From the NCBI GenBank assembly GCA_050250895.1, contig JBFWNU010000007.1, positions 128,001 through 192,000 of the forward strand: a stretch of DNA of 64,000 nt, in the 5' to 3' direction. Of the stretch, positions 1 through 55,051 are shown piece after piece (position 1 is the first letter of the stretch; the number at the start of each line of letters is the position of its first letter). Below the pieces are notes generated by a model that ran no database searches, had not been told where the DNA came from, and was given only the letters and a program-made list of their open reading frames with translations. Source of the stretch: Vulcanimicrobiota bacterium (GTDB lineage Bacteria; Vulcanimicrobiota; Xenobia; Xenobiales; JADMJV01). The position numbers and the translations under genes were made by a program.

Positions 1-2
1 CC

Positions 3-746
3 GGCTTCTATCCCATCTTGATCGTGCCGGCTTCGGGGTTGCCCGAGTTGCTGCCCGAGCTACTCGAGTATGGGTCTTTTCCGGCCAGCGTGTTGGTGGC
101 CGATGGGGGCCTCTCGCCTCTGCTCGACGGCGAGGGCAATCCTTACTATCATCCCGCCGGACTGCGGGATCTCTCGTTTTTGCGCACGCTCCCGGGCGCG
201 GCCACGGCCTGCCCGGCCGACGAAGAGGAGGCGGCGGCGCTGCTGCGGGCCGCCCGCAGCCATCCCGGCTTTGTGGTTCTTCGCTTTAGCTCGGCCCCAT
301 CGGTGGGCATTCCTGGCGAAGCCGTGGCCATCGGCCGAGGGCGCCGCTTGAGGCAGGGGAAAGACGCCGCGATCATGGTGGTGGGCAGCACGGTTTTTCC
401 GGCCGTGCTGGCGGCCGAGAGCATGCGGGCCTGGGGTATCGAGGTGGCCGTCTATGATATGCGGTTCGTGCGGCCTCTCGATCTCGGCTTGCTAAAAGAG
501 GCGGCTCGTTGCGGCACCCTGGTCACGGTGGAAGAGCATCTGGTCACGGGCGGCTTTGGGTCGAGCGTGCTCGAGGCGCTGGGCCAGGAAGAGTTCGAGC
601 CGGTGCGGGTGCGCTGTCTGGGCATCCCCGAGGGAGAGCATGAAGTGGCCACCGCCGCTCCCCTGGAAAGTTTTCGTCTGCACGCTGAGGGCATTGCCGA
701 TACGGTGCGTCAGATCCTCGGCCTGACGGCTCCCGGTGATTTCTGA
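3..746 (+). CDS. DXS/transketolase C-terminal-like protein, 5'-truncated by the window edge, divergent
   Basis: Frame is open from base 3. GRGRRLRQGKDAAI, VYDMRFVRPLD and LVTVEEHLVTGGFGSSV match the DXS C-terminal domain; the pyrimidine-domain motifs are degenerate. Confidence 0.75.
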   Translation, partial: GFYPILIVPASGLPELLPELLEYGSFPASVLVADGGLSPLLDGEGNPYYHPAGLRDLSFLRTLPGAATACPADEEEAAALLRAARSHPGFVVLRFSSAPSVGIPGEAVAIGRGRRLRQGKDAAIMVVGSTVFPAVLAAESMRAWGIEVAVYDMRFVRPLDLGLLKEAARCGTLVTVEEHLVTGGFGSSVLEALGQEEFEPVRVRCLGIPEGEHEVATAAPLESFRLHAEGIADTVRQILGLTAPGDF

Positions 747-903
747 GGTTGGGTTTCGGGTAAAAGGATCGAGGTCTGCCTGAAGGAACTTCCGGGGGGG
801 GATTGCGAACAAGTGCTCGATCGATGACGCCTTTTCATTCTAGTTTCAGGGTGGGTGCGTAAAAGAAATAGGGGTTCGGGGCATATCATAGAGCGGGGGT
901 TCT

Positions 904-2139
904 GTGGAATCTTCAGAGAATAGAAGACTCTTCCCACGCGTTGAACACGTCGTTCACGGCTGGTATCGTCTCGGCCAGGAGAAGTTTCGACGGTGCAAGA
1001 CGCTGGATATGTCCCTCCAGGGCGCTTTGCTGGTGGTGGATCACCTCTTCGCGCCAGAAGAGAAGCGCTTCGAACTTCATCTCGATCTCGACGCCGATTG
1101 GCAGATCGCTTTGTTTGCCGAACCCCTCTGGCAGCGACCCATCTTCTTTGGCAAGCAGTTTCTGACCGCGGTTACCTATAAGTTCAAGAATTCCCAGGAC
1201 AAAAGCATGTTTGGGCTGTGGGTCCAACGTTCCAAGACCAGCGACGGCGAACGACCCGACTATCTAGAGCCTCCACGAACCTCGCCAATGGCGTCGAAAT
1301 CCAGTTTTGAAGAAGAACTGCACGTTCCCTCGAAGGTGGTCACCCGGACCCAGCGCTGGCGCCAGTTGTTGGCCAACGTGCGAGCGGTGGTGCCCTGGGT
1401 TGATGAAGAGAAGCTGCTCAAGTGCCGGCGCCGCGAACCTCGCATTCCGGTGGGTATGAGGCTCCGGCTGCTGCATGACGGCCAGCAGACCTCGGTCGAA
1501 CTGCTCAATATCAGTCGGCACGGACTGCGGGTGTATGTCGAGCAGCCGTCGAAGCTGCGCAACGAGGCTGTCCTCATCCTGGATGAAGATTCGCTATTGG
1601 TAGGACGCCGGCGGCTCAAAGTCACGCGCCTGTGGGACCTTGAAACAGAACGATCGGGCCGCGTATTCGGCATGGGGTTGGCCGAGCCGGCCGAAGTGGT
1701 GGACCAATCCTGGCTGGGCGATCTGTTGCGACGCCTGCAGTATGACCTGGTGGAACCGCGCCAGGCTTTGCGCTTGCCGGTGAGCGTTCCGGTGCGGGTG
1801 CTGGCCGAGGACCGAGAAATCCTGGCCGACGGCGAAACCGTCGACATCGGCCTCGGCGGAGCCCTGCTAGAGGTAGACGCCGCCCTGCCGGTGGGCAATA
1901 CCGTAGTTGTTTCGATGTGCGATGGCGAGGAGATAAACTTCGACCTGCTGGCTCGGGTATTGCATCAGGATGCCAGTCAGGGAGTGGGTTTTCGCTACGG
2001 AGTGGCTTTCTTCAAAGGCCGCTCCCAGAGCCATTTGCAGCTTTCGCGAGCCTTGAGCAAGCGGGCTCGATGGTGGAGTTTGGACAGTGAGGGCCGGTCA
2101 CCGGCTGGCCCGGCTACCTTGAGGAGCAGTTATGCCTGA
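904..2139 (+). CDS. Triple PilZ-domain protein (c-di-GMP receptor)
   Basis: Three RxxxR...[D/N]x[S/G]xxG pairs: RLFPR/DMSLQG, RREPR/NISRHG, RQALR/DIGLGG. Confidence 0.85.
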   Translation: MESSENRRLFPRVEHVVHGWYRLGQEKFRRCKTLDMSLQGALLVVDHLFAPEEKRFELHLDLDADWQIALFAEPLWQRPIFFGKQFLTAVTYKFKNSQDKSMFGLWVQRSKTSDGERPDYLEPPRTSPMASKSSFEEELHVPSKVVTRTQRWRQLLANVRAVVPWVDEEKLLKCRRREPRIPVGMRLRLLHDGQQTSVELLNISRHGLRVYVEQPSKLRNEAVLILDEDSLLVGRRRLKVTRLWDLETERSGRVFGMGLAEPAEVVDQSWLGDLLRRLQYDLVEPRQALRLPVSVPVRVLAEDREILADGETVDIGLGGALLEVDAALPVGNTVVVSMCDGEEINFDLLARVLHQDASQGVGFRYGVAFFKGRSQSHLQLSRALSKRARWWSLDSEGRSPAGPATLRSSYA

Positions 2140-2485
2140 GCTAAATATTCAGAGCAATGTTGACCGAGGGGTTTCGGTCCTGTCGTTACGGGGGCCGTTT
2201 CGGCTCGCCGGGGCCTCGGAGTTTCGCAAAGCCAGTTCGGGGCTGATCGAAAGTGGGGTGCGCAAAGTCGTGGTCGACCTTTCCGAGGTCGACGAACTCG
2301 ACGGCTTCGGATTGAGTGCGCTGGTGGGATTGCTGGCCCGCCTCCATCGCCTGGGGGGGCGCATGGCCCTGGCGGGCGTGAATCCCGAACTAAAGAAGAG
2401 GTTCGAAGCGACCTGGACCGAGGACGTGTTCAGGCAACATATCACGGTCGCTCAGGCGGCCACGGAGATGCAGAAAAATGGCTGA
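2132..2485 (+). CDS. STAS-domain (anti-sigma-factor antagonist-like) protein
   Basis: 117 aa; VVVDLSEVDELDGFGLSALV...RMALAGVN is the SpoIIAA/RsbV pattern. GAGGAG RBS; overlaps both neighbours. Confidence 0.85.
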   Translation: MPELNIQSNVDRGVSVLSLRGPFRLAGASEFRKASSGLIESGVRKVVVDLSEVDELDGFGLSALVGLLARLHRLGGRMALAGVNPELKKRFEATWTEDVFRQHITVAQAATEMQKNG

Positions 2486-3599
2486 AGAAGCTGCGGTCAA
2501 GGATGATCGAAAGAAGCTCAGCTCGGATATCAATCCTATCGCCTGGTTGATCTGGGTGGTAGGCCTGGTGTTGTCGCTGCTGGGAACCTGGATGCTGGTG
2601 CGCGAGCAGACTCTGGTCTTTCCCACGGTGGCGGTGCTGCTCTATCTGGCCGGGGCGGTGCTGACCGCTGGCGGTACGGGCCTGGCTCTGAGCCTCACCG
2701 ATCCCGCCGGCTGGGCCTGGGCGTCGCTTTCGGGGGTGATGGCTCTGCTGGTGGGTCCGCTGGGCGTGGTCATGGGAGTGGTTTGCTATCTCATGGCGAG
2801 GGGTCAGCCCACCGGCCAACCGCTTACCGAAGTGGTCAAGGCCGAGATGTGGATCAAGGCCGAAGAGCCCGAAGAGGTCGACGAGCTGGCTCCGCTCGAT
2901 CTCAAGATTCGCGAGCAGGCTCGCACCGAACCCATCGTCGACCTGTTGCCCTATGCTGACGTGGCCACGGCTATCGCCATCGTCAACCGCTTGCGTGAAC
3001 GCGGCAATCATGACGACATCCAGATGATTCGCCAGATATCGCGCGATCCTCGGCCTGAAGTCTATCAGTACGCCATCTCGCAGCTCGACCGTCTGGAAAA
3101 GGAGTTTGCCGGCCGCATCTATCGGATCGAGGCGGACATGAAGGCCCAGCCAGCCCGGACCGAGCTCCGCATCGATCTGGCCCGCGAGTATCTGCGCTAC
3201 ATCGACAGCGGGCTGCTGGACGAGGGCCTTCGGGACTATTATTGGGAACTGACCCTGGCCCACGTGTTCGAGGCCATGCTGGCCCATCCGCGCGGCGAAG
3301 AGCTGGCCGTCGATGTGGCTCACCTGCTGCATATGCAGGGTCTCTACAAGTCGGCCACCCGGGTGGCTCAGGCTGCCCTCAAACGCGCCCCCGAGAGTCT
3401 CCAGGGTCAACTGCTGGTGTTGCAGACCATGGTCGATCAGGCTCAGGCCGAGGGCAAATACACTTTGCTGCGCGAGGCCCGAACTCGAGCCCTGGAATCG
3501 GCCTGGGCCGTGCCCGTCCCGAAGAAACGCGAGGCCGGAGCCGGCCCCACCTTCGATCTGGCCCACTTCTGGTTTGAAGGGAGAAAGTCCAATGCTTGA
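2478..3599 (+). CDS. pelE: PelE-like membrane protein with HEAT/TPR-like helical domain
   Basis: N-terminal TM helices, then RDPRPEVYQYAISQLDRLE and LAREYLRYIDSGLLD, which resemble PelE. Lies directly upstream of pelF. Confidence 0.65.
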   Translation: MAEEAAVKDDRKKLSSDINPIAWLIWVVGLVLSLLGTWMLVREQTLVFPTVAVLLYLAGAVLTAGGTGLALSLTDPAGWAWASLSGVMALLVGPLGVVMGVVCYLMARGQPTGQPLTEVVKAEMWIKAEEPEEVDELAPLDLKIREQARTEPIVDLLPYADVATAIAIVNRLRERGNHDDIQMIRQISRDPRPEVYQYAISQLDRLEKEFAGRIYRIEADMKAQPARTELRIDLAREYLRYIDSGLLDEGLRDYYWELTLAHVFEAMLAHPRGEELAVDVAHLLHMQGLYKSATRVAQAALKRAPESLQGQLLVLQTMVDQAQAEGKYTLLREARTRALESAWAVPVPKKREAGAGPTFDLAHFWFEGRKSNA

Positions 3600-5100
3600 C
3601 GTTCTCTTCCTGTGCGAGGGTACCTACCCTTACGTCCCCGGCGGTGTGTCGAGCTGGATTCACTCACTCATCGTCGGCATGCCCGAACTCAAGTTTGGGG
3701 TGCTCTATCTGGCTCCATCCGAAAAGGACGAGCTCAAGCTACGCTACCAGTTGCCCCCGAATCTGGTGGAGCTGGTCGTCTTTCCGCTCTATGACCTGGT
3801 TTATAGGCCCCAGCCCACCAGCCCCTTCAAGTCGGGGGCCTGGCAGGATGTCGAGCCGTTCATCGAGGGGATCATCCAGGGCGAGGCGCGAGGTTTCGAC
3901 AAAGCCTTTCCGCATCTGTGCGGCAGCGGTGACCGCGAGCCGACCCTGACCATGAAAGAGCTGGCGACTTCGTTCGAGAGCTGGAAGATGCTCACTGACT
4001 CCTATCAGCGCAACTACCCCAAGTCGTCGTTCAACGACTTTTTCTGGTCCTGGCGCTACGCATTCTTGCCCCTGTTCAAGCTGTTCCACGCCGATATCCC
4101 TCCGGCCCGCCTCTACCATACGGTGACCACCGGTTGGAGCGGCATGCTGGCAGCTATCGCCGCCCGCCGTCGCAAGCGCCCTTTCATCGTCACCGAGCAC
4201 GGCCTCTACGTCAACGAACGCCGGATCGAGATCTCGCAGGCTGACTGGATCTATGTGGACGCTCCCACCCGAGGCGCCCTCGAAATCGGCTTTGGTACCT
4301 TCAAAGAGATCTGGATCAACCTGTTCCTGGCTCTGGGCAAACTCTGCTACCACGACGCCAGCCGCATTTACACCCTCTTCGAGGGCAACCGCGACAAAGA
4401 GATCGAGTTCGGGGCCCCGGCCGACAAGATCGACATCATTCCCAACGGCGTCAACGTCGATCACTTCGTCTCGATCGAAAAACGCGCTCTGCCCGAGAAG
4501 CGCGACGCCTTCCGGGTGGGACTCATCGGCCGGGTGGTGCCCATCAAGGACATCAAGACCTTCATCAAAGCCTGCCGCCATATGGCTCAGGAAATCTCGA
4601 CCCTCGAGGTCTATATCTGCGGGCCCACCGACGAGGACCCTGAATATTACACCGAGTGCGAGACGCTGGTGGATGCCCTGGGCCTCAACCAGGTGGTCAA
4701 GTTCACCGGCCGGGTGGACGTCAGCCAATACTATCCGTGCCTCGATGTGCAGGTGTTGACCAGTATTTCTGAGGGTCAGCCTCTGGTCGTTTTGGAAGGC
4801 TTCTGTTCGGGGCTACCGTGTGTGGCCACCGATGTGGGGGCCTGCTCTGAGCTGGTCAACGGTCGCAGCGCCGAGGACATCGCCCTGGGACCGGCCGGAG
4901 TGGTGACCTGGGTCGGCAACCCTCGTCAGACGGCCGAGGCGGTCATCGACCTCTATCACAAGCCCGCCAAACGTCGGGCCATGGGAGAGGCGGGCAAGGA
5001 GCGGGTCAGGCGATATTATCAGCGCTCGGACATGCTCGACGCCTATCGGCGAATTTACGAGTCGCACATCCAGAAACTCGAGAAAGTAGGGGCCGGATAA
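3592..5100 (+). CDS. pelF: PelF-family GT4 glycosyltransferase (DUF3492 + GT-B)
   Basis: EGTYPYVPGGVSSWIH, TEHGLY..ER, IGRVVPIKDIKTFI, LTSISEGQPLVVLE, ATDVG. Start reassigned to the ATG at 3592. Confidence 0.93.
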   Translation: MLDVLFLCEGTYPYVPGGVSSWIHSLIVGMPELKFGVLYLAPSEKDELKLRYQLPPNLVELVVFPLYDLVYRPQPTSPFKSGAWQDVEPFIEGIIQGEARGFDKAFPHLCGSGDREPTLTMKELATSFESWKMLTDSYQRNYPKSSFNDFFWSWRYAFLPLFKLFHADIPPARLYHTVTTGWSGMLAAIAARRRKRPFIVTEHGLYVNERRIEISQADWIYVDAPTRGALEIGFGTFKEIWINLFLALGKLCYHDASRIYTLFEGNRDKEIEFGAPADKIDIIPNGVNVDHFVSIEKRALPEKRDAFRVGLIGRVVPIKDIKTFIKACRHMAQEISTLEVYICGPTDEDPEYYTECETLVDALGLNQVVKFTGRVDVSQYYPCLDVQVLTSISEGQPLVVLEGFCSGLPCVATDVGACSELVNGRSAEDIALGPAGVVTWVGNPRQTAEAVIDLYHKPAKRRAMGEAGKERVRRYYQRSDMLDAYRRIYESHIQKLEKVGAG

Positions 5101-6572
5101 TGGCTGGCATAGGCTTTCGCCTTCGTTCTTTTACTCAGGAAGGCACCATCGGTGGTTTTCTGAAAGGGTATTACAACGCGGCCCTGGTGGCCTCGGGCCC
5201 CTGGATTCTGACGGTGGTGACACTGATCGCAATTCAGTTCCTAATGCGCCAGACGGCGGCGCGCACCGACCTGTTCCTCGAGACCATCATCTACATTTAT
5301 GCCTTTAGCCTGATCACCACGGCTCCGTTCCAACTGGTGATCACGCGCTATCTGGCCGATCAGCTCGACGCCCAGAAGCTGGGGGCCCATATCCCGTCGC
5401 TGGTTTCGATCACCCTGGTCAGCACCGCTTTTCACGCGGTCGTAGGGTTGCTCTTTTTCTCGACGGTCGAGGTGCCGTGGCTGTATCGTTTCACGGCGGC
5501 GGCCCTGTTTGCGATGGTGGCTCTGGTGTGGTTGTTGATGGCCTTTGTGGGGGCGGTGCGCGCCTTTCATCTGGTGGCCACCGCTTTCGTGTCGGGGACG
5601 ATCGTGAGCATCCTCTCAGCCTATGGCCTGGGCCTTCGCCTGGGAGAGCCAGGCTACCTGATGGGGATGTTGCTGGGGAACTCGATCATCGTGGCTATCT
5701 GCTTGACGGCCCTGGCCCGCGAATTCGAGTGCGCCGCCTCGTTCAACTTCGAGTGGCTCGAGTACTTTCGCGAGACTCCTTATTTGCCGGTGGCCGGAAT
5801 GCTCTATTACGCGGCCATCTGGAGCAGTATCATGATCTACTGGTTCACCATCGGTGACCCGGTCCAACCCCACGTTCTGTTCGCCTACGAGGCCATCGAC
5901 CTGGCATCGTTCTACGCCCAGATGACCATCATTCCGGCGGTCACCATGTTCTACGTCCACAACGAGACTTCGTTCTACGAGGACTATCGCGGCTTCTATA
6001 ACGCCGTGCTCGCCAAGAAGAGCCTCGATGTCATTCGCGATCGCCGCGAGACGCTCGTCAAGAACCTCAAGGAAGCCTTCTTCAATCTGGGACTGGTCCA
6101 GGCGGTGGTGACCTTTGGCGCCATCGCCTTCGCCCCCCAGATCGCCACCGGCTTGCAGATGTCAGAGCACGAACAGCAACTGTTCGTGAACATGGCCCTG
6201 GGCGCAGCGCCGCAGGTGATGCTGCTGTTCGTAATGGTCATCATGTTCTATTTCCAGTTCTACAAAGAGGCTATGTTCACCAGTCTCATCGCCCTGGTCG
6301 GGTGCCTTGGCTTTGGGGCCCTGACTCTGTGGCCGACCCATCGACCCGACCTCTACGGGTTCGGCCTGCTGGGGGGCACCGGTATCGCCCTGGTGGTGGG
6401 GTTGTTCTGGCTCTTTGATCGTCTTTCGCTGCTGGACTACATCACGTTTTCGTCGCAGCCGTTGGCCGAGGAGGTCCCATTCCGGCAGGATATGTTGACC
6501 TCGCGGGGCGGCTTTGGAAAAACTATCGTCCAGGACGGTAAGCTCCTGGTTAAAACGGAGAAATCGCTATGA
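5100..6572 (+). CDS. pelG: PelG exopolysaccharide transporter
   Basis: MAGIGFRLR N-terminus, SGPW, TRYLADQL, ETSFYEDYRGFY, about 12 TM helices. TAATG coupling to pelF. Confidence 0.92.
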   Translation: MAGIGFRLRSFTQEGTIGGFLKGYYNAALVASGPWILTVVTLIAIQFLMRQTAARTDLFLETIIYIYAFSLITTAPFQLVITRYLADQLDAQKLGAHIPSLVSITLVSTAFHAVVGLLFFSTVEVPWLYRFTAAALFAMVALVWLLMAFVGAVRAFHLVATAFVSGTIVSILSAYGLGLRLGEPGYLMGMLLGNSIIVAICLTALAREFECAASFNFEWLEYFRETPYLPVAGMLYYAAIWSSIMIYWFTIGDPVQPHVLFAYEAIDLASFYAQMTIIPAVTMFYVHNETSFYEDYRGFYNAVLAKKSLDVIRDRRETLVKNLKEAFFNLGLVQAVVTFGAIAFAPQIATGLQMSEHEQQLFVNMALGAAPQVMLLFVMVIMFYFQFYKEAMFTSLIALVGCLGFGALTLWPTHRPDLYGFGLLGGTGIALVVGLFWLFDRLSLLDYITFSSQPLAEEVPFRQDMLTSRGGFGKTIVQDGKLLVKTEKSL

Positions 6573-7510
6573 ATCGACTGCACTACGCCTGGGAGACTTT
6601 CATCCTCTATGGCCTGGTTTGTCTGGTAGGGAAGATCTTTAATGGCGGTAACTGGGCCTTCGTGGGGTCCGCCTTTCACCCGTTCATTTTGATCATCGCC
6701 CTCGAGGCCGTTCAATACGGATTGCATCAGGCGCTGTTCGCGGCCCTGGTGGGTGTGATTCTGTACCTGCTGGCGGCCGGTCAGATGGCCGGGCACGCGG
6801 GTATCCTGTTCTCGATGGCGGTCACCGCGCTGCTGCTGGGATTGACCCAGGAGGCTCGCAACCGGCAGCTGCGCGAAACCCGCTCAGAACTCGAGGAAGT
6901 GCGCACCGACCAGGAGCGCCTGCGCCAGCGCATCAGCGTGTTGACGGCCGCCAACGCCGAACTCAACGAGCGCATCCTGGGCGAGGTCAATACCGTCCAG
7001 TCGTTCTCGGAGATCGCCCGCCGCCTGTCGGTACTCGAGCGTGACGACCTCTATCCGGCTGTATGCCAGTTGATTCGCGACTATCTCCAGGCAACCGAGG
7101 CTTCGTTCTATGACCTGCAAGATGGAGCCCTGGTGATGCGCGCCGAGAGCGGCTGGGCCAAGGTCCCTAAAGAGGCTCAGAAGTTGACCGACGGTGAAGG
7201 GTTGCTGTGGGAGGCGGTGCGCCAGAAGCGGCCGGTGACGGCGATGGAACTCGAGATTCCGGCCAAGGCCGACGCCGCGGACCCGGCCCGTCGTTACGGT
7301 CGTCTGATCGCGGCCCCGGTGCTGCATCCCGACACCAAGGAGCCCATTGGGGTGGTCTCGGTCGACCGCATGCCGTTTAGTCGCTTTCATGGCGCCAGCG
7401 TCAAGATTCTCGGTGTGGTGGCTCGCTGGGCGGGCGACTCGCTCTACAACGCCGCGCTTTTCGAGCAGCTTCGCTCGCAAGTTGAGAAAGGAAAGGTCGC
7501 CAAGGCCTGA
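6569..7510 (+). CDS. pelD: PelD-like protein (TM + coiled coil + GAF), lacking the C-terminal GGDEF domain
   Basis: HPFILIIALEAVQYG TM region, coiled coil (ELNERI), and GAF (IAAPVL..IGVVSVDRMPF). The ORF ends right after the GAF domain. Confidence 0.7.
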   Translation: MNRLHYAWETFILYGLVCLVGKIFNGGNWAFVGSAFHPFILIIALEAVQYGLHQALFAALVGVILYLLAAGQMAGHAGILFSMAVTALLLGLTQEARNRQLRETRSELEEVRTDQERLRQRISVLTAANAELNERILGEVNTVQSFSEIARRLSVLERDDLYPAVCQLIRDYLQATEASFYDLQDGALVMRAESGWAKVPKEAQKLTDGEGLLWEAVRQKRPVTAMELEIPAKADAADPARRYGRLIAAPVLHPDTKEPIGVVSVDRMPFSRFHGASVKILGVVARWAGDSLYNAALFEQLRSQVEKGKVAKA

Positions 7511-7519
7511 GGTCACCAC

Positions 7520-8272
7520 ATGCTGCGGGAATTACTCAAAGGGATTAAAGCCTTCGTTATCGGGGGCGAGCTACCCACTCCCGACGAAAGTCGGATCGCT
7601 CCGCGCCTGCTTTGCCAGTATCGCGTGAACTTGCTTTACGGAGATACTGAATTCAAAGCTTCGGTAGTGGACATCGGTAGCACCGGGATGCGCCTGGAGG
7701 GCGTGCCCGAGATGAACAAGGGTGACCACCTGCGCATCTCCTACCCCTTTGCCGAGCACTTCCAGGAGGATGTCGGCTTCGAGGTCGAGGTGATGTGGAC
7801 CCGGGTGCGGACCCACGATGGTGTGCGTCTGACTGGCGTGCGCTACATCAAACAGGGCGAGGAACTCAAGGGCACCTGGGTGCGAACCCTGCAAGAAGAG
7901 GTGGGTCTGCATGGCGATTCCACCTTTCAGAAGCGAAAGCACGTGCGGCTGGCGACCACGCTCAAGGCCGAGGTGCGCGACCTCGATTCGGGGCGTTTCC
8001 TCAGTCAGGGCAAGGTCAACAACCTGAGCGTTGGAGGCGCCCTGATCGAGTCACCCGAAGAACTCAAGAAAAACAACCGGGTCATGGCCTTGATCGGCCC
8101 CCACCTCAACTATCCAACCCTCTCCGTCCACGCCCGAGTGCTCAATAGCCGGGCCGACGAAGACGATGGCGTCTATCTGCACAGTCTTCAGTTCGTTGAC
8201 GTCAATAAGAAGCAACTCAAGACTTTGGAACGTCTCGTGCTCAAGATGCTCCAGGGACGCTCGCTAGGTTGA
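7520..8272 (+). CDS. Double PilZ-domain protein
   Basis: RIAPR/DIGSTG and RKHVR/NLSVGG; GAGG RBS. Confidence 0.85.
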   Translation: MLRELLKGIKAFVIGGELPTPDESRIAPRLLCQYRVNLLYGDTEFKASVVDIGSTGMRLEGVPEMNKGDHLRISYPFAEHFQEDVGFEVEVMWTRVRTHDGVRLTGVRYIKQGEELKGTWVRTLQEEVGLHGDSTFQKRKHVRLATTLKAEVRDLDSGRFLSQGKVNNLSVGGALIESPEELKKNNRVMALIGPHLNYPTLSVHARVLNSRADEDDGVYLHSLQFVDVNKKQLKTLERLVLKMLQGRSLG

Positions 8273-8283
8273 TGGGAGACCGC

Positions 8284-9762
8284 ATGCGTAAAATTGGAGC
8301 TGTCTTGCTCTTGTCTGTGCTGTTCATCGGGTGCCCGGTGCAGAGCCAGGTTCATTACGAAAAAGGGGTCGCACTGCTGCGTGACCGCAAGTTCGAAGAA
8401 GCCACCACCGAACTGACCAGGGCTATCGAAAAGGCTCCCAAGTTCGCTATGGCCTATATGAAACGGGGTTACGCCTATAGCCGGCAGGGGCTCTACGATC
8501 AGGCGTTGGAAGACTATCGGGTAGCGATCGAGCTGGCTCCCAAGGAAGCTACCATCTACTACGACCGGGGTCTTCTCTATGACGAGATGGGTGACCATCG
8601 CCAGGCGGCCCTGGCCGACTTCGACAAGGCCCTGGAACTCAATCCCGAGAACGCCTTTGTCTGGGCTGCCCGCGGTAACGTCTACCTCAAGCTTTTGCAG
8701 TTCGAACGGGCTATCGAAGACTACGACAAGGCCATCGAACTCAACCCCAAAGAGGTGGTGCCCTATTCTTCTCGGGGCAACGCCTACCTCGAATTGCGCG
8801 ATTTCAAAAAGTGCATCGAGAGCTACAACAAGGCCATCGAACTCGACCCCGAGCACGCGCTGGCCTTTGCCGGTCGTGGCTACGCCTATCTCGAGCTGGG
8901 GAACTTCGAGAAGGCTCTGGAGGATTGCGAGAAGGCCGTTCAACTCGACCCTCACCTGGGAGCCGCTTATCTGTCGCGTGGCTACGCTTACATCCGAGCC
9001 CTGGGCGACTACGAAAAAGGGATTGCCGATTACACCAAAGCCATCGAGTTAGACATTGAAGAGGCCAAGCGCCGTGGCAAGGCCGAGAGCTTCTTCTATG
9101 CTTATGTAGCCCGTTGCGACGCCTATCGCGAGGTGGGCGAGCTGGAGAAATCGCTGGCTGATGGCGACCGGGCCATCGAAATCAATCCGGCCTATGCCCA
9201 GGCCTATCTCAGCCGTGGCAAGACCCATCAGGCGCTCGGCCATGCCGGGCTGGCGGCCCGAGATTTCGACAAGGCCATGACCCTCTTCGCCGAGTCGGCC
9301 TATGCGCGCTCGGCCCGGGCCTGGCTGCACAACGAGCAGGGTCGTTACAAAGAGGCGCTGGCCGAGTACGATCAGGCCATCAAGCTCGACCCCGATTACG
9401 CCGACGCCTATTATGGTCGCGGCAACGCGTTGGTCAAGCTTAAGAAATACGACGAGGCAGTGGCCAGCTACGACAAGGCCATCACCCTCAATCCCACCTA
9501 CGCTTACGCCTATTCGGCTCGGGCTCAGGCCAAGCTGCTCAAAGGCCAGAAGAAACAGGCGCTTGACGACTACAACAAGACCATCGAACTCAGCCCACGT
9601 TTTGGCTCGGCTTATTACGCCAGGGCCGGCGTCTATTCTGAACTCGGCAGCTACGACCAGGCCATGAAAGACTATCAAAAGGCGCTCGAGATGGGCGTCA
9701 ACCCTGAACTCAAGAAGTCGGCCGAGGCGGCCATCAAGAAACTGAAAAAGGAAAAGCCCTAG
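8284..9762 (+). CDS. Exported TPR-repeat protein (about 12 TPRs), possible lipoprotein
   Basis: Signal peptide MRKIGAVLLLSVLFIGC followed by repeated AY..RG..Y..LG....A..DY.KAIEL.P units. Confidence 0.9.
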   Translation: MRKIGAVLLLSVLFIGCPVQSQVHYEKGVALLRDRKFEEATTELTRAIEKAPKFAMAYMKRGYAYSRQGLYDQALEDYRVAIELAPKEATIYYDRGLLYDEMGDHRQAALADFDKALELNPENAFVWAARGNVYLKLLQFERAIEDYDKAIELNPKEVVPYSSRGNAYLELRDFKKCIESYNKAIELDPEHALAFAGRGYAYLELGNFEKALEDCEKAVQLDPHLGAAYLSRGYAYIRALGDYEKGIADYTKAIELDIEEAKRRGKAESFFYAYVARCDAYREVGELEKSLADGDRAIEINPAYAQAYLSRGKTHQALGHAGLAARDFDKAMTLFAESAYARSARAWLHNEQGRYKEALAEYDQAIKLDPDYADAYYGRGNALVKLKKYDEAVASYDKAITLNPTYAYAYSARAQAKLLKGQKKQALDDYNKTIELSPRFGSAYYARAGVYSELGSYDQAMKDYQKALEMGVNPELKKSAEAAIKKLKKEKP

Positions 9763-10073
9763 GCGCTGAGGGCGGCCACGAGACGCTCGAACTGTCCCTG
9801 GGCGGGACGGTTGACCGGGGTGGGGTAGTGCCGGGCCTGTTGGCCTGCCGGCCCGCTCTCTAAGGCCTGGCGCAGGGGAGCGTCATCAGCCCTGGGCTCG
9901 AGGTCAGGAAAGAGATCGAGCTGGGATAGATCGTTTAGGCCCAACCGCTGGCGCATCCTCTTGCGAGTGCGCACATACAGGACCGAAGCTCCCCGCACCA
10001 ACCCCTGTGGCTGGTGGTAGAGTAGAGTCTCGTCAGGACCGAAATGGAACGGAGTTGGATGGCGGCTGGGCAA
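9759..10073 (-). CDS. Hypothetical protein (104 aa)
   Basis: TTG start with GAGGTG RBS; fills the gap and converges with the TPR gene. No motif recognised. Confidence 0.45.
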   Translation of the reverse strand: MPSRHPTPFHFGPDETLLYHQPQGLVRGASVLYVRTRKRMRQRLGLNDLSQLDLFPDLEPRADDAPLRQALESGPAGQQARHYPTPVNRPAQGQFERLVAALSA

Positions 10074-10192
10074 ATTTCACCTCGTCTGGCCCCAAATCTA
10101 ACCCGGGCGAAGTAAATTTTAGGCTACAAAATTGTTAACACTTGTCGCGTCGCCGCGAAGGTTCCCCCCCGCCTCGACGAGAAAGCCCTGGT

Positions 10193-10825
10193 ATGAAGCG
10201 CCGGGTCCTGTGGGCGGTCGCTGTCTTGGCGGCCCTGGTCTTAGCTGGGCTGCTTCTCTGGTGGACACGGCTGCCGCGTTTGGTGGTGTATGTGCAAGAG
10301 TCGAGCCCCGGGTTGCTTGACCGCGCGCATTACCGAACCGTCTTTCGCCAGGCTGGAGTGTGGCGGCTCAAACTCAACGACGGCGAACCGGCCGAGCTCG
10401 GCTGGGACGAGCAGTCTCGAACGCTGGCCATCGAGCTGCGGCTAGTGGAAGAGGCTAATCCGAAAGTGAACAAGTCCTCTCGAGAACTCGGATTGACCGG
10501 CCCGGGTTTCACCGAAGGAAGGGTTTCCACTGTGTATCTGGTGGATGTGAAGGCTTTCGTCATCAAACACCGTGGAGACTATCTGCACCTGCAGACAACC
10601 GATTGGAGCGAGGTCGAACGCCGTCTGGTGGCCAATACCGCCGTGCACGAGAGTTGGCACGCCATCGCCTTGAGCGCCTCTCATAATCCGACCGACAAGG
10701 CGGCCGTCATGTACATCGATCCCGGTCGGGCGGCGGTCCAGTTCGGCACCACCCGCATGCCCTTCACCAGGGGCCACGAGCGAAGGCTGCGAGAAATCTT
10801 TCGAGAAGGTCGGGTGGATGGATAA
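10193..10825 (+). CDS. Membrane-anchored zinc metallopeptidase-like (matrixin-like) protein
   Basis: N-terminal anchor MKRRVLWAVAVLAALVL; HESWH...SH followed by an AVMY Met-turn-like motif. Confidence 0.6.
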   Translation: MKRRVLWAVAVLAALVLAGLLLWWTRLPRLVVYVQESSPGLLDRAHYRTVFRQAGVWRLKLNDGEPAELGWDEQSRTLAIELRLVEEANPKVNKSSRELGLTGPGFTEGRVSTVYLVDVKAFVIKHRGDYLHLQTTDWSEVERRLVANTAVHESWHAIALSASHNPTDKAAVMYIDPGRAAVQFGTTRMPFTRGHERRLREIFREGRVDG

Positions 10826-12701
10826 TCCTGGCCAACTGGCTCCTCAAGCCGATCATGCGCCGATGTACCGGCGACGCCTGGTGCTGGGTTATGCCGTGTC
10901 GATCATGCTGGTGGTGGTGTTCTGTGGCTGGGGTGCCTACTGGACCGGACGGGTTCGCCGCACCACCGAGCGACTGGTGGCCCGCGCCTATCAGAGTACG
11001 ATCGCCTGGGATCGCATGGTCTATGCCCTGGAGCGGCAGGACAACGCTCTGCTGCATTTGCTGGTGGATGCCTCGCCCCGCTCCACGGGGGTCTTTGCCG
11101 ACAATGCCATGACCTTCGAACAGATGCTCAAAGAGGCTCAGCGCTCACCCTCGTTCGAAGGCGAACGCGAGGCCAGCCAGCGAATCGAGAAGCTCTTCGG
11201 AGAGTATCTCGACGCTTTCGAGACGATCCACGAGCTACACCGGGAGGGAAGTGCCACCTCGGCCATCGCGGCCTACAACGCCGTGGCCCAGCCCTTGTTT
11301 CTCCAGATCCGGACCGACCTGATCGAAGTGCGAGACCAGTATTATCAGCGGATCTCGGATGTGTCCTATCAGGTCGAGCGCGAGTCCCGCTTTGCCGAGA
11401 TCTCGATGGCGGTGGCCGCTATCTGCTTCGTCGGTCTGGGCGGCGCATTCTTGCGATTTCTGTCCGGGCATCTGCTGGAGCTTGAACGAGAGCGGGCTCG
11501 CAACTTCGCTATGGAGCGGCAGGCCAAAGAGGCCGCCGAAGAAGCCAATGCTTCCAAGAATCGCTTTCTGGCCACCGTAACCCATGAGTTGCGCACGCCC
11601 CTGACCGGTATCCTTGGCAATCTCGAGCTACTGGAAGAGAATATCCGTAAACCCCGCGACCTCGAGTATCTCGCCGCGATCCACTCGAGTTCGAAGGTTC
11701 TGCTCTATCTGGTCAACGACTTATTGGATCTCTCGCGCATGGAAGCCGGTCGCCTGGAGGTTCGAGCCCACCCTTTCGAGCCCACCGAACTTTTGGAAGA
11801 ACTCATCGCGGCTCTGACGCCGGTGGCGGCCGAGAAGGGGATTCAGCTAGAACTCGAACTCCACGACCAGTTACCCCAGGGTTTGCTCGGCGACTCCCAG
11901 CGCATTCGCCAGATTTTGCTCAACCTGGTGGGCAACGCCATCAAGTTCACCAGTCAAGGCGGAGTCAGAGTGGGAGTGCGTGCTCAGACGGAGCAGACCT
12001 GTCGCCTGATCATTGCGGTAACGGACACCGGCCCGGGGATCGCTGCCAGCGAACTCAAATCGATCTTCAAGCCGTTTCATCAGCTCGACAGTTTCGAGAG
12101 CCGCAGTCAGGGCGGGGCCGGCCTGGGCCTGGCCATCGTGCGTAGTCTGGTCAAAGAGATGGGTGGCGAGGTAGCGGTCGACAGTAAAGTGGGGGAGGGC
12201 ACCACCTTCACGGTCGAGTTGGAGCTGCCCCGCTGTGAGGTGGCCGAAAGGCCAGAGGAATTGGATTCTGAGCGCCAGCCGCTACCCCCGGCTCGGGTGC
12301 TGCTGGTGGAGGACAATCCCATCAGTCGAAGGGTCATCGGCCTGCAACTTTCCCGGATGGGGCTCGAGGTCACTTCGGCGGCCGACGGTCAGGAAGCCCT
12401 CGATTGCTTCGAAAGTCAGGACTTCGATCTGGTTCTCATGGATTGTCAATTGCCGGTGCTCGATGGCTATGAGACAACCCGTCGCATTCGCCAATCACCC
12501 CGCCCCGAGATGCGAGGCCTGACCATTCTGGCCCTCACCGCCCACGCCCTCGAGGGCGAATTCGAACGATGCCTTCAGGCCGGAATGGACGACTTTTTGA
12601 CCAAGCCGGTCGACAGCGCTACTCTCGAGCGGGTGTTGCGGCACTGGCTGACCAGGCAGGAGTCAGGCCGGGATCTTGCTGGCGGCGGCGATACCCAATA
12701 G
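10818..12701 (+). CDS. Hybrid sensor histidine kinase (four-helix sensor, HisKA, HATPase, REC)
   Basis: VTHELRTPL, NLVGNAIKFT, DTGPG, GAGLGL; REC LMDCQLPVLDG. Confidence 0.93.
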   Translation: MDNPGQLAPQADHAPMYRRRLVLGYAVSIMLVVVFCGWGAYWTGRVRRTTERLVARAYQSTIAWDRMVYALERQDNALLHLLVDASPRSTGVFADNAMTFEQMLKEAQRSPSFEGEREASQRIEKLFGEYLDAFETIHELHREGSATSAIAAYNAVAQPLFLQIRTDLIEVRDQYYQRISDVSYQVERESRFAEISMAVAAICFVGLGGAFLRFLSGHLLELERERARNFAMERQAKEAAEEANASKNRFLATVTHELRTPLTGILGNLELLEENIRKPRDLEYLAAIHSSSKVLLYLVNDLLDLSRMEAGRLEVRAHPFEPTELLEELIAALTPVAAEKGIQLELELHDQLPQGLLGDSQRIRQILLNLVGNAIKFTSQGGVRVGVRAQTEQTCRLIIAVTDTGPGIAASELKSIFKPFHQLDSFESRSQGGAGLGLAIVRSLVKEMGGEVAVDSKVGEGTTFTVELELPRCEVAERPEELDSERQPLPPARVLLVEDNPISRRVIGLQLSRMGLEVTSAADGQEALDCFESQDFDLVLMDCQLPVLDGYETTRRIRQSPRPEMRGLTILALTAHALEGEFERCLQAGMDDFLTKPVDSATLERVLRHWLTRQESGRDLAGGGDTQ

Positions 12702-13520
12702 CCGACGATGGACTTCTTCGATGACCGAGTCGGGGGTCGAGGTGCCAGCCGTCAGACCCACCAGCCGAAAGCCGGCGAACCACTCGGGTCGCAGCTGCTC
12801 GGCGCGCTGGATGTGAAACCAGGGCTTCTGGGCGCGCTCGGCCATCTGACCTAGTTCGCGGGTGTTGTTCGAATTCGCGCCGCCCACGACGACCAGTGCT
12901 TCGACCCGGTCGAGCAGCTCGCGAACGGCTTGCTGGCGATCGCGCGTCGGGGCGCAGATGGTGTCGACCAGTTCGATTTCTGAATCGGGGTTGCGTTGGC
13001 AGATGGTGGAGTGAATCCGCTGCAAGAGCTCGGGACGGGTCGTGGTCTGGTTGATGACACCCAGCTTGCGTCGATTCCAGCAGCGGACATCCTGGCAAGA
13101 CGAGACCACCACATAATCGTCAAGGTCTCCCACCAGGCCCTCGACCTCGACATGCCCCTGGCGACCGACCACGACCACGAAGTAGCCTAATCGCGCCAGC
13201 CGCAGGGCGGCTTTGTGCACCCTGCGCACCAGCGGGCAGGTGGTATCGATCAGGCGCTTGCCGTGAGCCTCCAGCCGCTCCCGTTCGCGATTGCTGATAC
13301 CGTGGGCGGTGATCAGCACCTCGGGGGTGGCAGGCAGGTCCCGTTCGCCCTCACCCACCTGGTGAAAGCCCCGCAAGGCCATCTCGGACTGGACCTGCGG
13401 GTTATGAACCAGCTCCCCGTGGATGGTGACGGCCGCAGGCTGCTGGATCTCGCGGGCTTTGGTGAGGGCATCGCGGACCCCGAAGCACATTCCGAGGTGC
13501 TGGGCTTGAACAACTAACAT
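12663..13520 (-). CDS. ispH: 4-hydroxy-3-methylbut-2-enyl diphosphate reductase
   Basis: Three Fe-S cysteines (GMCFGV, DTTCPLV, DTICAPT), LVHN, GHVEV, SNNT, TAGTSTP. Confidence 0.95.
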   Translation of the reverse strand: MLVVQAQHLGMCFGVRDALTKAREIQQPAAVTIHGELVHNPQVQSEMALRGFHQVGEGERDLPATPEVLITAHGISNRERERLEAHGKRLIDTTCPLVRRVHKAALRLARLGYFVVVVGRQGHVEVEGLVGDLDDYVVVSSCQDVRCWNRRKLGVINQTTTRPELLQRIHSTICQRNPDSEIELVDTICAPTRDRQQAVRELLDRVEALVVVGGANSNNTRELGQMAERAQKPWFHIQRAEQLRPEWFAGFRLVGLTAGTSTPDSVIEEVHRRLLGIAAASKIPA

Positions 13521-14681: not shown

Positions 14682-17963
<3,282 letters not shown>

Positions 17964-31518: not shown

Positions 31519-33480
31519 GTGTTTCTCGATTCCGAGATCGAGTCGGTCGGTCAATTAGCCACCCTCTTGCCCGAGGCGATCGCCGCCCGCTACGAGTTGC
31601 AAGACGCCGAGGCAGAACTGGCTCAGGCTCTGGCTTTCGAGACCGAGGCGGGCCCTCAAGTGCTCGACCACTCCACGGCCGTCTATCACGCCCGCTGCGA
31701 CTTGCCGGTCTGCGTCCAGGTCTTCGTGCGCTTTCGCGAACCGCTTCCGCTGCGCGACCGTCAGGGTAACAAAGTCCAGTTTGCCTGGGTATTGCTTTCG
31801 GATCAAACCAGCCACCCCCACCTCGACCTGGTCGCCGAGTTCGTTCATCTCATGGGCGACCCCGATTTTCTGGCCGCCGCCCAGCGGGTCGCCCAGAGTG
31901 AAGACATCTGGCAGGCTTACGATCAGGCCCTGCATCGCGAACTCAGTCTGGCGCGGCTGCCAGCGGGGCTCGAGCCGACGGGGCGTATCTTCGGTGGCCT
32001 CATCGCCGATCTCAAACGCAGACTACCGCTCTACGGCTCGGATTTTCGCGACGGATTCTGTTCCAAAGCGCTGGCCTCGATCCTGTTCTTGTTTTTTGCC
32101 GTGCTGGCGCCCACCACCGCCTTCGGCGGTCTTTTGTCGGTGTTGACCAAAGGCGAGATCGGAGTGGTCGAAACGCTGCTGGCCACCTCGGTGGTGGGAG
32201 TGCTCTACGCCCTTTTTTCGGGACAACCCCTCAACATCGTGGGCAGCACCGGACCGATCATCATCTTTCTGGGTATCCTTTACGACCTCTGCCAAATGGT
32301 CGGAGCCCCTTATCTGCCAACCCTGGCCTGGGTCGGCCTCTGGACGGCCCTTTTCCTGGTGCTGCTCACGGCCTTTGATGCCAGCTCGTGGGTGCGTTTT
32401 TTTACTCGCTTCACCGACGACACCTTCGCGGGGTTGATCGCCATCATCTTCATTTTCGAGGCCGTGAAGGACATGGTTCACGTCTTCACCGACCACAAAG
32501 TGAGCCACGACACGGCTTTATTGTCCTTGATCCTGGCCATCGGCACCTTCTGGATCGCCACCAATCTGTCGCGCTTTCGCCGCAGTGTCTACCTGCGCCG
32601 GGCGGCCCGCGAGTTCTTGGCGGACTTCGGACCAGCCATCGCCATCGCCGCCATGACCGGGGTGGCCGTGTGGCTGCACCAGGTCGAACTACAAACCCTG
32701 CAGGTGCCTTCGACCCTGGTCACCACCTCGGGCCGAGCCTGGCTGGTCAACCCCTTCGATGCGCCTCGCTGGGTCTGGCTGGCCTCGGCCCTGCCGGCCG
32801 TGCTGGCGGCCATTCTGGTCTATCTCGACCACAACATCACCGCTCGCCTGGTGAACACCCCGGACCACAAGCTCAAGAAGCACGGCGGCTATCACCTGGA
32901 CCTGGCCGTGGTGGCGCTGCTCATCGCGGGCTGCTCGCTGTTTGGTCTGCCCTGGCTGGTGGCAGCCACGGTTCGCTCGCTCAACCATGTGCGCAGTCTG
33001 GCCAATGTCGAGGGCGAGGGCAACCGCATCGTGTCGGTGGTCGAGACCAGGGTGACCGGATTGATGGTTCACGCCATGATCGGCTGCTCGTTGCTGGTGT
33101 TACCGCTGCTTCAACTGGTGCCCATGCCGGTGTTGTTTGGACTGTTCCTCTACATGGGTGTGGCCTCGCTCGGGGGCAACCAGCTTTTCGAGCGCCTCAC
33201 TCTGTGGGTGATGGACCCGTCGCACTATCCGCCTACCCACTATCTGCGGGCCGTGCCTCTGCGGGTGGTCCATCGCTATACCCTGATTCAGGCTTTGTGC
33301 CTGGCCGCCTTGTGGACGGTCAAAGCCAGCGCAGTGGCTATCGTGTTTCCTCTGTTGATCGCTCTGCTGGTGCCGGTGCGAATGAGTCTGGACCGATTTT
33401 TCAAGAAAGAGCACATCGCCCTGCTCGACCTCGAAGAAGAACCCGCCTCGGAAGCATTTCGCGAAGCGATGCCTGGCTAG
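31519..33480 (+). CDS. SLC4 (HCO3- cotransporter/band 3) family transporter with an N-terminal PTS EIIA-like domain
   Basis: KRRLPLYGSDFRDG, FGGLL, GQPLNIVGSTGP, FTRFT, GYHLDL, GLPWLVAATVRS, MPVLFGLFLYMG. Confidence 0.9.
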   Translation: MFLDSEIESVGQLATLLPEAIAARYELQDAEAELAQALAFETEAGPQVLDHSTAVYHARCDLPVCVQVFVRFREPLPLRDRQGNKVQFAWVLLSDQTSHPHLDLVAEFVHLMGDPDFLAAAQRVAQSEDIWQAYDQALHRELSLARLPAGLEPTGRIFGGLIADLKRRLPLYGSDFRDGFCSKALASILFLFFAVLAPTTAFGGLLSVLTKGEIGVVETLLATSVVGVLYALFSGQPLNIVGSTGPIIIFLGILYDLCQMVGAPYLPTLAWVGLWTALFLVLLTAFDASSWVRFFTRFTDDTFAGLIAIIFIFEAVKDMVHVFTDHKVSHDTALLSLILAIGTFWIATNLSRFRRSVYLRRAAREFLADFGPAIAIAAMTGVAVWLHQVELQTLQVPSTLVTTSGRAWLVNPFDAPRWVWLASALPAVLAAILVYLDHNITARLVNTPDHKLKKHGGYHLDLAVVALLIAGCSLFGLPWLVAATVRSLNHVRSLANVEGEGNRIVSVVETRVTGLMVHAMIGCSLLVLPLLQLVPMPVLFGLFLYMGVASLGGNQLFERLTLWVMDPSHYPPTHYLRAVPLRVVHRYTLIQALCLAALWTVKASAVAIVFPLLIALLVPVRMSLDRFFKKEHIALLDLEEEPASEAFREAMPG

Positions 33481-45131: not shown

Positions 45132-46081
45132 CCGACAAGGCCGAACCGCTAGCCGACGAGGCCGAAGACCAGGCACAGCCTTCAGAAGAGGCCTCTGAGG
45201 AGCCTTCGGACGGCGAAGCGGCCGAGGAAAGCCCTGCGAGCGAGGAAGAGGGATCGGTCGAGAGCGAGCCCGAGCAGGTTGACCAGCCATCCGGGCCAGT
45301 CGAAGAACCGGCCGAGGCTGTCCCTTCAGACTCCGCTGAGGAGCCCGAAGGTCCGGTCCACGATCCCGACACCGATGGCGAGCGGCGGCGCGGACAGCGC
45401 AAAGGGGTTCGGCTCAACAAGCTGATTTCGGCCAAGATAGCCACCGGCGATTCCAGCGCCAACGCCTACATTCACCTGGTGGATATTTCCGAGGGAGGGT
45501 TGCGCATCAACAGCGACAACCCTTTTCCTGGCGAGGCCGACATCGAGTTGACCTTTCCACTCGAGGCCTTCGGTGCCGACCTGGCTTCGGAGTACAAGGT
45601 CCAGACCTTCAAGATGCGATTGGTCTGGCAGAAGCAACTGGTCGGCGGCATGCACGTCTCGGGCTTGAAGTTTCTTGACCCCACCGAAGAGAATCAGTCG
45701 GTGGTCAAGAAGATTCTCGAACGGTCCTCTCCCGAAGGACGCCGCTTGCGCTTTCGCCTCAACCGGGTGCTCGGGGTCGAGATCGGCAAGGAAGAAGGCA
45801 GCCAGTGGATTTATCCCCTGGCCGAGGACCTCTCCATCGAAGGCATGCGGGTGCGACTCGACGAGCACCTCGAGGTTGGCGACGAGTTTCCCATCAAGCT
45901 GTTTCTCGAGTTCGAGTTGCCGACCGTCGAGACGCGCGCCAAGGTGATGTGGCAAGAAGAACTGGGCTCTGGGCGTCATCAAGTGGGCATGAAGTTCACC
46001 GAGATCGACGACAAGAACGCCGCCGTCATCAAGGATTACATCGACCGCTGCCTGGAGAAGGATAGCAAGAAGAAACGTTGA
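45128..46081 (+). CDS. Double PilZ protein with an acidic, disordered N-terminus
   Basis: RKGVR/DISEGG and RLRFR/DLSIEG; ATGA overlap with glyA. Confidence 0.85.
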
Positions 46082-51050: not shown

Positions 51051-51133
51051 GCTCAGGCTTTGTGCGTCAGGGGACATCTGGGGAGGAGCGTTCGTCAGCC
51101 AAGAGGAAGGGCTGCTCGTAATTAGGGGGTTAG

Positions 51134-52630: not shown

Positions 52631-52633
52631 GCG

Positions 52634-55049: not shown

Positions 55050-55051
55050 CC

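Follow-up and report, generated by a model that had tools for sequence, protein, structure and literature searches.

The window analysed here, a stretch of 64,000 nucleotides, comes from the 9.5-Mb genome (17 contigs, 99.6% complete) of a Vulcanimicrobiota (Eremiobacterota) bacterium of the class Xenobia, an uncultured organism of soil and sludge. Between positions 904 and 9762 it holds a cluster of eight genes that is best explained as encoding the inner-membrane core (a PelE-like protein, PelF, PelG and PelD) of a synthase-dependent exopolysaccharide system of the Pel type, and in which genes for PilZ and STAS proteins are embedded. All eight lie on the forward strand and overlap or abut one another: along the cluster, the junctions are overlaps of 8, 8, 8, 1 and 4 nucleotides, then a 9-nucleotide gap and finally a 4-nucleotide overlap. 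A first-pass annotation had described eight co-oriented, overlapping or nearly abutting genes in the order given below, and the coordinates together with Pfam and NCBIfam matches bear it out. The same annotation proposed that control of the synthase by cyclic diguanylate (c-di-GMP) is delegated from PelD to separate PilZ-bearing subunits, a proposal that we weigh here by comparative genomic, sequence and structural analysis.

904-2139 (+): three-PilZ protein, 411 residues; Pfam PilZ in three stretches (E 1.5e-27) and a home-built PilZ hidden Markov model
2132-2485 (+): single-domain STAS protein, 117 residues; Pfam STAS (E 5.5e-17); overlaps each neighbour by 8 nucleotides
2478-3599 (+): PelE-like membrane protein, 373 residues; no Pfam or NCBIfam family, assigned by position, topology and weak similarity
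3592-5100 (+): PelF, cytoplasmic GT4 glycosyltransferase with an N-terminal DUF3492 domain, 502 residues; NCBIfam equivalog
5100-6572 (+): PelG, polytopic membrane protein and putative exporter, 490 residues; Pfam PF16933
6569-7510 (+): PelD homologue lacking GGDEF, 313 residues, with four N-terminal helices, a stalk helix and a GAF domain; Pfam GAF only
7520-8272 (+): two-PilZ protein, 250 residues; Pfam PilZ in two stretches; starts 9 nucleotides past pelD
8269-9762 (+): probable TPR lipoprotein, 497 residues, about 10 TPR repeats; Pfam TPR families, with a signal peptide and Cys in the translation

Two of the synthase components match curated models outright. PelF, whose start is likely the ATG at 3592 inside a longer open reading frame (ORF; 3313-5100), scores 470.6 bits against the NCBIfam equivalog NF038011 (cut-off 100) and matches Pfam DUF3492 (PF11997; E 1.4e-74) plus Glycos_transf_1 (GT1), while PelG matches PF16933 with 335 bits over model positions 1-452 of 452 and is single-copy, the sole PelG match in the genome. 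The PelE-like protein combines N-terminal hydrophobic helices with a cytoplasmic alpha-repeat/TPR region. Its family profile matches TPR and alpha-repeat (alphaRep) proteins in PDB, it resembles only weakly the ORFs that occupy the place of pelE in the phylum's other pel loci (phmmer E 1e-14 to 7e-5), all 61 of its relatives in the database are close homologues without a name, and no PelE structure was found for comparison. The earlier pelE-like label is thus a tentative one, drawn from position, topology and weak similarity, with no curated family matched; the gene previously listed simply as TPR does encode such repeats, and its product, which is without a porin domain, can now be described as a probable lipoprotein. 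Terminator-like sites within the cluster number 12 against 8.8 +/- 3.2 in shuffled sequence, which is not above expectation; promoter and terminator scans gave nothing exceeding the shuffled expectation, and no Rfam RNA, riboswitches included, matched at E <= 1 in positions 1-13000 of the window.

The departure from known Pel systems centers on PelD. In Pseudomonas aeruginosa, PelD binds c-di-GMP at R367, D370 and R402 (PMC8461298). The protein encoded here stops at residue 313, with the next gene beginning 9 nucleotides on, and the degenerate GGDEF domain with its RxxD I-site is absent; neither PF16963 nor PF00990 matches it, and the earlier description of a pelD-like gene without GGDEF therefore holds, with GAF as the only Pfam match. 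That it belongs to the PelD family is indicated by several lines of evidence. A phmmer search against 1.84 billion representatives returned 954 matches, mostly of about 460 residues and aligned over query residues 1-305, and relatives such as P0016 and P0020 show a transmembrane (TM), GAF and GGDEF architecture by Pfam. A profile of 50 PelD-family members recovers P. aeruginosa PelD (4dmz/4dn0) with E 6.9e-18 across both GAF and GGDEF, whereas the window sequence alone gave nothing useful against PDB. The AlphaFold model (pLDDT, the predicted local distance difference test, 91.7) places helices at residues 3-24, 38-50, 52-70 and 77-139, including a stalk helix of about 60 residues, followed by the GAF domain. 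In a Foldseek search with this model, PelD chains appear at ranks 12, 21, 31 and 35, among the lowest root-mean-square deviations, and generic GAF domains rank higher, so that the fold alone is not discriminating. On these matches, the 313-residue protein reads as the N-terminal two-thirds of a PelD.

No other PelD was found in the genome. Three queries—the window protein, a 454-residue relative and a canonical 469-residue PelD from another family of the phylum—recovered only the gene at 6569-7510, which is also the best genome match of the canonical protein. PF16963 (PelD_GGDEF) has no match across the genome, a result that is uninformative alone because control genomes are equally silent. 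The one additional match, a weak one at C4:477195, was rejected as a second PelD: it is a soluble GAF-GGEEF cyclase in an unrelated setting, encoded beside a histidine kinase and a DctP gene.

Against PF07238, with its cut-off of 22.5, the three-PilZ protein scores 96.4 bits and the two-PilZ protein 86.8 bits. The domains of the three-PilZ protein span approximately residues 6-101, 175-258 and 286-383, each with RxxxR and D/NxS/GxxG. The motifs RxxxR and D/NxSxxG are those that we take to be the c-di-GMP-binding motifs of PilZ domains; RxxxR is present in 5/5 PilZ domains of the cluster, and D/NxSxxG is canonical in three of the five. An alignment of 14 two-PilZ orthologues and paralogues shows R25, R29, G56, R139, R143, N168, S170 and G172 to be invariant and D51 nearly so, with the Ser position of the first domain alternating between Ser and Gly. 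In the upstream PilZ protein, RRxxxR and DxS/GxxG of domain 1 are kept in 14/14 sequences, and the corresponding motifs of domains 2 and 3 in all six three-domain orthologues; domain 1 is also the one that aligns with the single-PilZ proteins of two other genera.

Structurally, the two-PilZ protein is modeled (pLDDT 80) as two barrels preceded by a conserved N-terminal helix of low modeling confidence. Its best fold matches are PlzA, MrkH, PP4397, VCA0042, MotI and YcgR (Foldseek E 6e-09 to 2e-06), with BcsA and Alg44 coming next through their PilZ domains; its profile has no sequence-level match among solved structures in PDB. The family is sharply bounded, comprising 52 clusters of 159-260 residues at >= 38% identity, and the sole taxon label given is Vulcanimicrobiota. 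In total, the genome contains 103 PilZ and 60 GGDEF domain matches. Complex prediction with PelD residues 95-313, the two-PilZ protein and two c-di-GMP molecules scored 0.03 against a mark of 0.32, which is evidence neither way.

The STAS protein is recognized by PF01740 (61.9 bits, cut-off 22.6) and scores 51.1 bits (E 1.1e-13) with TIGR00377, the anti-sigma factor antagonist superfamily, just below the cut-off of 53.45. Its invariant Asp57 is followed by Gly in the window and in each of the 11 sequences of its family; only the four sequences of the other family have Ser at this position. This is presumably the position of the serine that is phosphorylated in SpoIIAA-type proteins. Among the ORFs of the cluster, there is neither a SpoIIAB-type kinase nor a PP2C phosphatase.

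Conservation of the arrangement was surveyed in 18 stretches around short-PelD homologues in relatives, mapped by tblastn, phmmer and the home-built PilZ model. Together with the window, 17 loci (the window and 16 others) from four genera and two families share the order pelE-F-G-D, with the PelE-like gene syntenic in all 17. The STAS gene lies directly upstream of the pelE-like gene in 16/16 relatives' loci with upstream DNA (one contig is cut), and the two-PilZ gene comes immediately after pelD in 16 of the 17. The upstream PilZ protein is more variable: it has three domains in 6/6 loci of the window's genus and its sister genus and one domain in 4/5 loci of a third genus with upstream DNA, while in 4/5 loci of the fourth genus it is replaced by an opposite-strand single-PilZ gene downstream, adjoining a TPR gene. 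Of the six loci of the window's genus and sister genus, four have the TPR lipoprotein gene immediately after the two-PilZ gene, and a TPR protein with 31% identity is encoded nearby in 4/5 loci of the other family. Judged by this distribution, the gene for the TPR lipoprotein is a variable accessory, and the conserved core consists of STAS, pelE-like, pelF, pelG, pelD and the two-PilZ gene. The five PilZ domains emphasized in the first-pass annotation are indeed present in the window, but five was an overstatement as the conserved part, the upstream protein being single-PilZ in two of the four genera.

A further locus, L028 (G013:C16), bears on the association of PelD with the two-PilZ protein. 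At 3869-7068, it encodes a paralogous 311-residue TM and GAF protein (35% identical) immediately followed by a paralogous two-PilZ protein (38% identical), with an ordinary GT4 glycosyltransferase gene about 280 bp downstream of the pair and neither pelF nor pelG. Because this pair is paralogous to that of the pel locus, short PelD and two-PilZ protein travel together, and we regard the L028 pair as the best indirect argument that the two proteins may work together. A BrkB-family membrane protein is encoded convergently downstream in the same locus.

The PelD proteins of the lineage differ in length. In two sister genera, PelD comprises 442-455 residues, and the extra 140 residues have no Pfam match and line up with the degenerate GGDEF domain that canonical homologues carry. 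In 11/11 of these long PelDs, RxxD is replaced, by LHGD or LPGD in one genus and by an xxGA-type sequence in the other. The 13 comparator PelDs all carry RxxD, having been chosen for it; in an unselected 50-sequence alignment with about 41 long forms, the I-site columns hold Arg in 27 sequences and Asp in 35. A maximum-likelihood tree of PelG from 25 loci unites the 17 loci in one clade (support 100/100) and places the six short-PelD loci in one sub-clade (support 100/99), the tree being midpoint-rooted and having several long outgroup branches. The pattern fits a single deletion of the GGDEF domain that occurred with a PilZ gene already in place. The simplest history would put a PilZ gene and an I-site-less PelD in the common ancestor, followed by a single deletion of the vestigial domain in the lineage from which the window's genus descends.

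Pel loci outside this clade provide a measure of specificity. Elsewhere in the phylum, loci of the pelD-E-F-G type encode PelDs of 467-469 residues, with RxxD kept in two of three, and loci of the pelE-F-G-D type encode PelDs of 437-586 residues; none of these 10 loci has a PilZ ORF within approximately 8-10 kb on either side of pelG, contig permitting. A metagenome scan with a PelG alignment confirmed 511 relatives, and the survey covers the best 80 of these. PilZ ORFs occur in only two of these 80 loci, counted with flanks of <= 7 kb and a PilZ model built from this genome's own domains. Both are Xenobia-type, with PelG 72% and 49% identical, the order pelEFGD and PilZ after pelD. Among the 44 N-terminally complete PelD ORFs of the best 80, 35 have RxxD and no PilZ neighbor, seven have neither RxxD nor a PilZ neighbor, and two lack RxxD and have a PilZ neighbor; about a quarter of the metagenomic contigs are shorter than 4 kb, and related loci are not independent observations.

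STAS is not unique to the lineage: an ORF of this kind lies near pelG in three of the 78 other metagenomic loci (L064 to L066), and STAS may recur beside pel genes. These three loci belong to other lineages, with PelG 29-34% identical. The STAS ORFs of L064 (8962-9333) and L065 (2417-2788) are within about 1 kb downstream of pelG, and that of L066 (1529-1876) lies on the opposite strand, upstream by several kb. PelD, for its part, appears changeable in its C-terminal module, which is GGDEF, HEAT repeats, HEAT plus FHA, or nothing among homologues. HEAT repeats follow GAF in place of GGDEF in 8/20 longer PelD homologues scanned (P0008-P0012, P0015, P0026 and P0032; many of approximately 590-640 residues), and one of the eight, a form of 910 residues, has FHA as well.

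The observed gene content and its conservation across genera, together with a PelD I-site that has been lost, PilZ motifs that are intact and a genome without another PelD, form the ground on which we favor, with moderate confidence, a lineage-specific exchange of receptors, in which stand-alone PilZ proteins have taken over from the PelD I-site as the c-di-GMP input of the synthase. The exchange would have proceeded in two steps: two genera would have lost the RxxD I-site and kept a vestigial GGDEF domain, and the window's genus and its sister genus would then have lost the domain altogether. In the resulting machine, the PelE-like protein, PelG and PelD would form a membrane scaffold that recruits PelF, as PelD, PelE and PelG do in P. 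aeruginosa (PMC8461298). The two-PilZ protein, made right after PelD, would be the main c-di-GMP receptor; on binding, it would do for the complex what the lost GGDEF domain once did and switch on polymerization, docking on PelDEFG most plausibly at the stalk and GAF domain of PelD, where the GGDEF domain formerly lay. The upstream PilZ protein, with its three domains here, might provide a second c-di-GMP input, and STAS, translationally coupled to PelE, might serve as an adaptor or as a second input.

A more far-reaching version of the receptor exchange, which we put forward only tentatively and as a whole, is that short PelD and the two-PilZ protein constitute a detachable, portable c-di-GMP switch, duplicated and set beside an ordinary GT4 gene in L028; that the two-PilZ protein sits on the stalk and GAF domain of PelD, where the GGDEF domain has left room; that Xenobia genera preserve the successive steps of the exchange (a receptor with an I-site, then a GGDEF domain that is vestigial, lacks RxxD and is accompanied by a PilZ gene, and finally deletion of the domain); and that, with STAS and the upstream PilZ protein, separate subunits feed several c-di-GMP or partner-switching inputs into the synthase.

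Every computable refutation test of the first-pass annotation came out in favor of its reading, including those that bear on conservation beside pelFG (STAS in 16/16 loci and two-PilZ in 16/17) and on a GGDEF-bearing pelD elsewhere in the genome (none recovered by the three PelD queries). Its central claim, that c-di-GMP control is delegated to PilZ subunits, gains from the conserved loci, the retained motifs and the lack of another PelD, and has to be narrowed in its five-domain scope; nor is a GGDEF-less PelD new in itself, because streptococcal PelD also lacks that domain while keeping its TM and GAF parts (PMC7112168).

Several observations weigh against the exchange of receptors. One locus, L022, is without the two-PilZ gene and has its pelE-like frame split into two ORFs; five ORFs downstream of pelD in it match no Pfam family. 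L022 (G002:C20, 8923-9986) is a near-identical second copy with no PilZ genes, and the other copy in that genome has the two-PilZ gene, so L022 may be a duplicate in decay or an artefact of the assembly. The seven metagenomic PelDs that lack both RxxD and a PilZ neighbor indicate that loss of the I-site does not require replacement by PilZ. Within the window's cluster, Gly stands for Ser in two of the five PilZ domains (DIGSTG and DIGLGG), where orthologues show Ser or Gly. With 103 domain matches, PilZ genes are very common in this genome; since four genera retain the arrangement with proteins 40-80% identical, their presence beside pel is nevertheless more than chance. A fusion of PelD with PilZ was found in 0/20 longer PelD homologues scanned with Pfam, and no two-PilZ relatives longer than 439 residues scored, which is weak evidence.

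The locus also has no pelA, pelB or pelC, and its product may differ from the Pel defined in Pseudomonas. None of the three was found among the ten ORFs scanned at the locus (PelB and PelC were not searched genome-wide), and without pelB and pelC the locus does not account for outer-membrane export; the envelope of the phylum's only cultured member is typically Gram-negative and includes an outer membrane (PMC9758169). The sole clear GH114 gene, encoding a PelA-hydrolase-like protein of 327 residues, lies far from the pel locus at contig C8:153871-155896 (L061 4871-6896). It is divergent beside a diguanylate cyclase with cNMP-binding and GGDEF domains, and no deacetylase was seen beside it.

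Three alternative explanations compete with the exchange of receptors. The one that survives best, although we judge it unlikely, is that this Pel machine is not under post-translational c-di-GMP control at all and that the PilZ and STAS proteins serve another output (motility, adhesion or the envelope) or buffer c-di-GMP. Absence of such control has been raised as one possibility for streptococci, and a streptococcal strain whose PelD has only TM and GAF parts still forms a pel-dependent biofilm (PMC7112168); yet streptococci typically encode no cyclases (PMC7112168), as opposed to the 60 GGDEF matches here. The seven RxxD-less metagenomic PelDs without a PilZ neighbor are compatible with this explanation, as are the abundance of PilZ genes in the genome and the coupling of another two-PilZ gene in the window to an unrelated gene. 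Against these stand the overlapping or abutting frames that link PilZ and STAS to pelE and pelD, the persistence of the arrangement at 40-50% protein identity across two families and in 16/17 loci, and the duplication of short PelD and two-PilZ protein as a pair.

Less probable still is that the GAF domain of PelD or the STAS protein senses c-di-GMP or another nucleotide, with the PilZ proteins acting as brakes or localization factors, as YcgR does for the flagellar motor. Cyclic nucleotides are common ligands of GAF domains, the top fold match of the PelD model is a cAMP-bound GAF, and the two-PilZ fold resembles YcgR, MotI, PlzA and MrkH, which are brakes or regulators; the known binding by PelD, however, needs the GGDEF I-site that is absent here, and in cellulose and alginate synthase-dependent systems PilZ activates rather than brakes (both PMC8461298). 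That PelF and PelG serve a polymer other than Pel, which would loosen the comparison with Pel regulation, is very improbable: the cluster lacks pelA, pelB and pelC, the only GH114 gene of the genome is on another contig and the gene order is pelEFGD against pelDEFG, but PelF exceeds its equivalog cut-off of 100 with 470 bits, the PelG model is matched end to end and all four synthase components are present if the PelE-like protein is counted as one.

Pel is among the most widespread biofilm polysaccharides, and an exchange of receptors on a conserved machine, with intermediate stages extant in sister genera, would make a worked example of how such control is rewired. How c-di-GMP-bound PelD turns on the PelDEFG complex is still unknown (PMC8461298), and in a split system, where receptor and scaffold are separate polypeptides, this activation step could be easier to dissect by reconstitution.

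Elsewhere in the window, a second two-PilZ protein (45065-46081, forward strand; an ORF of 338 residues with Pfam PilZ in two stretches) overlaps by 4 nucleotides the start of a gene (46078-47508, forward strand) whose product contains LPG_synthase_C, a domain that forms the C-terminal part of phosphatidylglycerol lysyltransferase, and the pair could represent another PilZ-coupled envelope function. Three regions are dense in signaling genes (10818-12701, 14682-17963 and 48984-57088), encoding two hybrid histidine kinases, one of them with Hpt, a protein with three receiver domains and HATPase_c, a CHASE3 chemoreceptor and a CheA-type kinase. In the relative from the same genus, the genes that come immediately after the cluster (10142-12701) are not conserved. 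At 31519-33480 (forward strand), a protein of 653 residues joins an N-terminal PTS EIIA-2 domain to an HCO3_cotransp domain of the SLC4-type bicarbonate transporters (E 1.3e-180).

The first-pass annotation had also called this architecture unfamiliar from described pel loci, and no pel locus with PilZ genes was found in the literature searched (titles and the beginnings of abstracts), with the supplementary maps of PMC7112168 and PMC7112194, which possibly show such neighbors, outside its scope. According to a 2021 review, PilZ domains occur in no Pel protein (PMC8461298). In the accessible text, the paper on Gram-positive pel loci does not use the word PilZ (PMC7112168), and an operon survey mentions PilZ for BcsA only (PMC7112194). 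A search for literature on exopolysaccharide of Eremiobacterota or Xenobia returned nothing relevant.

Compared with PelDEFG of P. aeruginosa, the locus has the same kinds of components: a GT4 PelF, a polytopic PelG, a putative PelE-type protein with TM and TPR parts and a PelD in which four TM helices and a stalk precede the GAF domain. It differs in that PelD ends after GAF, without the degenerate GGDEF domain and its RxxD I-site, in the order pelE-F-G-D, in having no pelA, pelB or pelC in the locus, and in the embedded PilZ and STAS genes. A single-domain STAS protein within a polysaccharide locus has a parallel in SypA of the Vibrio fischeri syp locus, which controls biofilm formation by a mechanism as yet unknown (PMC4517449); SypA is controlled by the kinase/phosphatase SypE, whereas this cluster has no such partner. 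Like cellulose BcsA and alginate Alg44, the system associates PilZ domains bearing RxxxR and D/NxSxxG with a membrane polysaccharide synthase, but in BcsA and Alg44, PilZ is fused to the synthase or co-polymerase, and here the PilZ proteins are separate, soluble and multi-domain. Among two-barrel proteins, PlzA, MrkH, YcgR, PP4397, VCA0042 and MotI are the best structural matches to the two-PilZ protein. In those proteins, only the C-terminal barrel is known as a canonical PilZ domain, whereas both barrels of the two-PilZ protein carry the binding motifs. The closest precedent for the truncated PelD itself is found in the streptococcal pel loci (Whitfield et al. 2020, PMC7112168), where PelD likewise lacks the c-di-GMP-binding domain and keeps its TM and GAF parts; streptococcal PelD has in addition an N-terminal epimerase-like domain, which is absent here. 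Because streptococci typically encode no diguanylate cyclases or phosphodiesterases (PMC7112168), the loss of the PelD domain there accompanies the absence of the signal, in contrast to the present genome, with its 60 GGDEF and 103 PilZ matches and with PilZ genes in the pel cluster.

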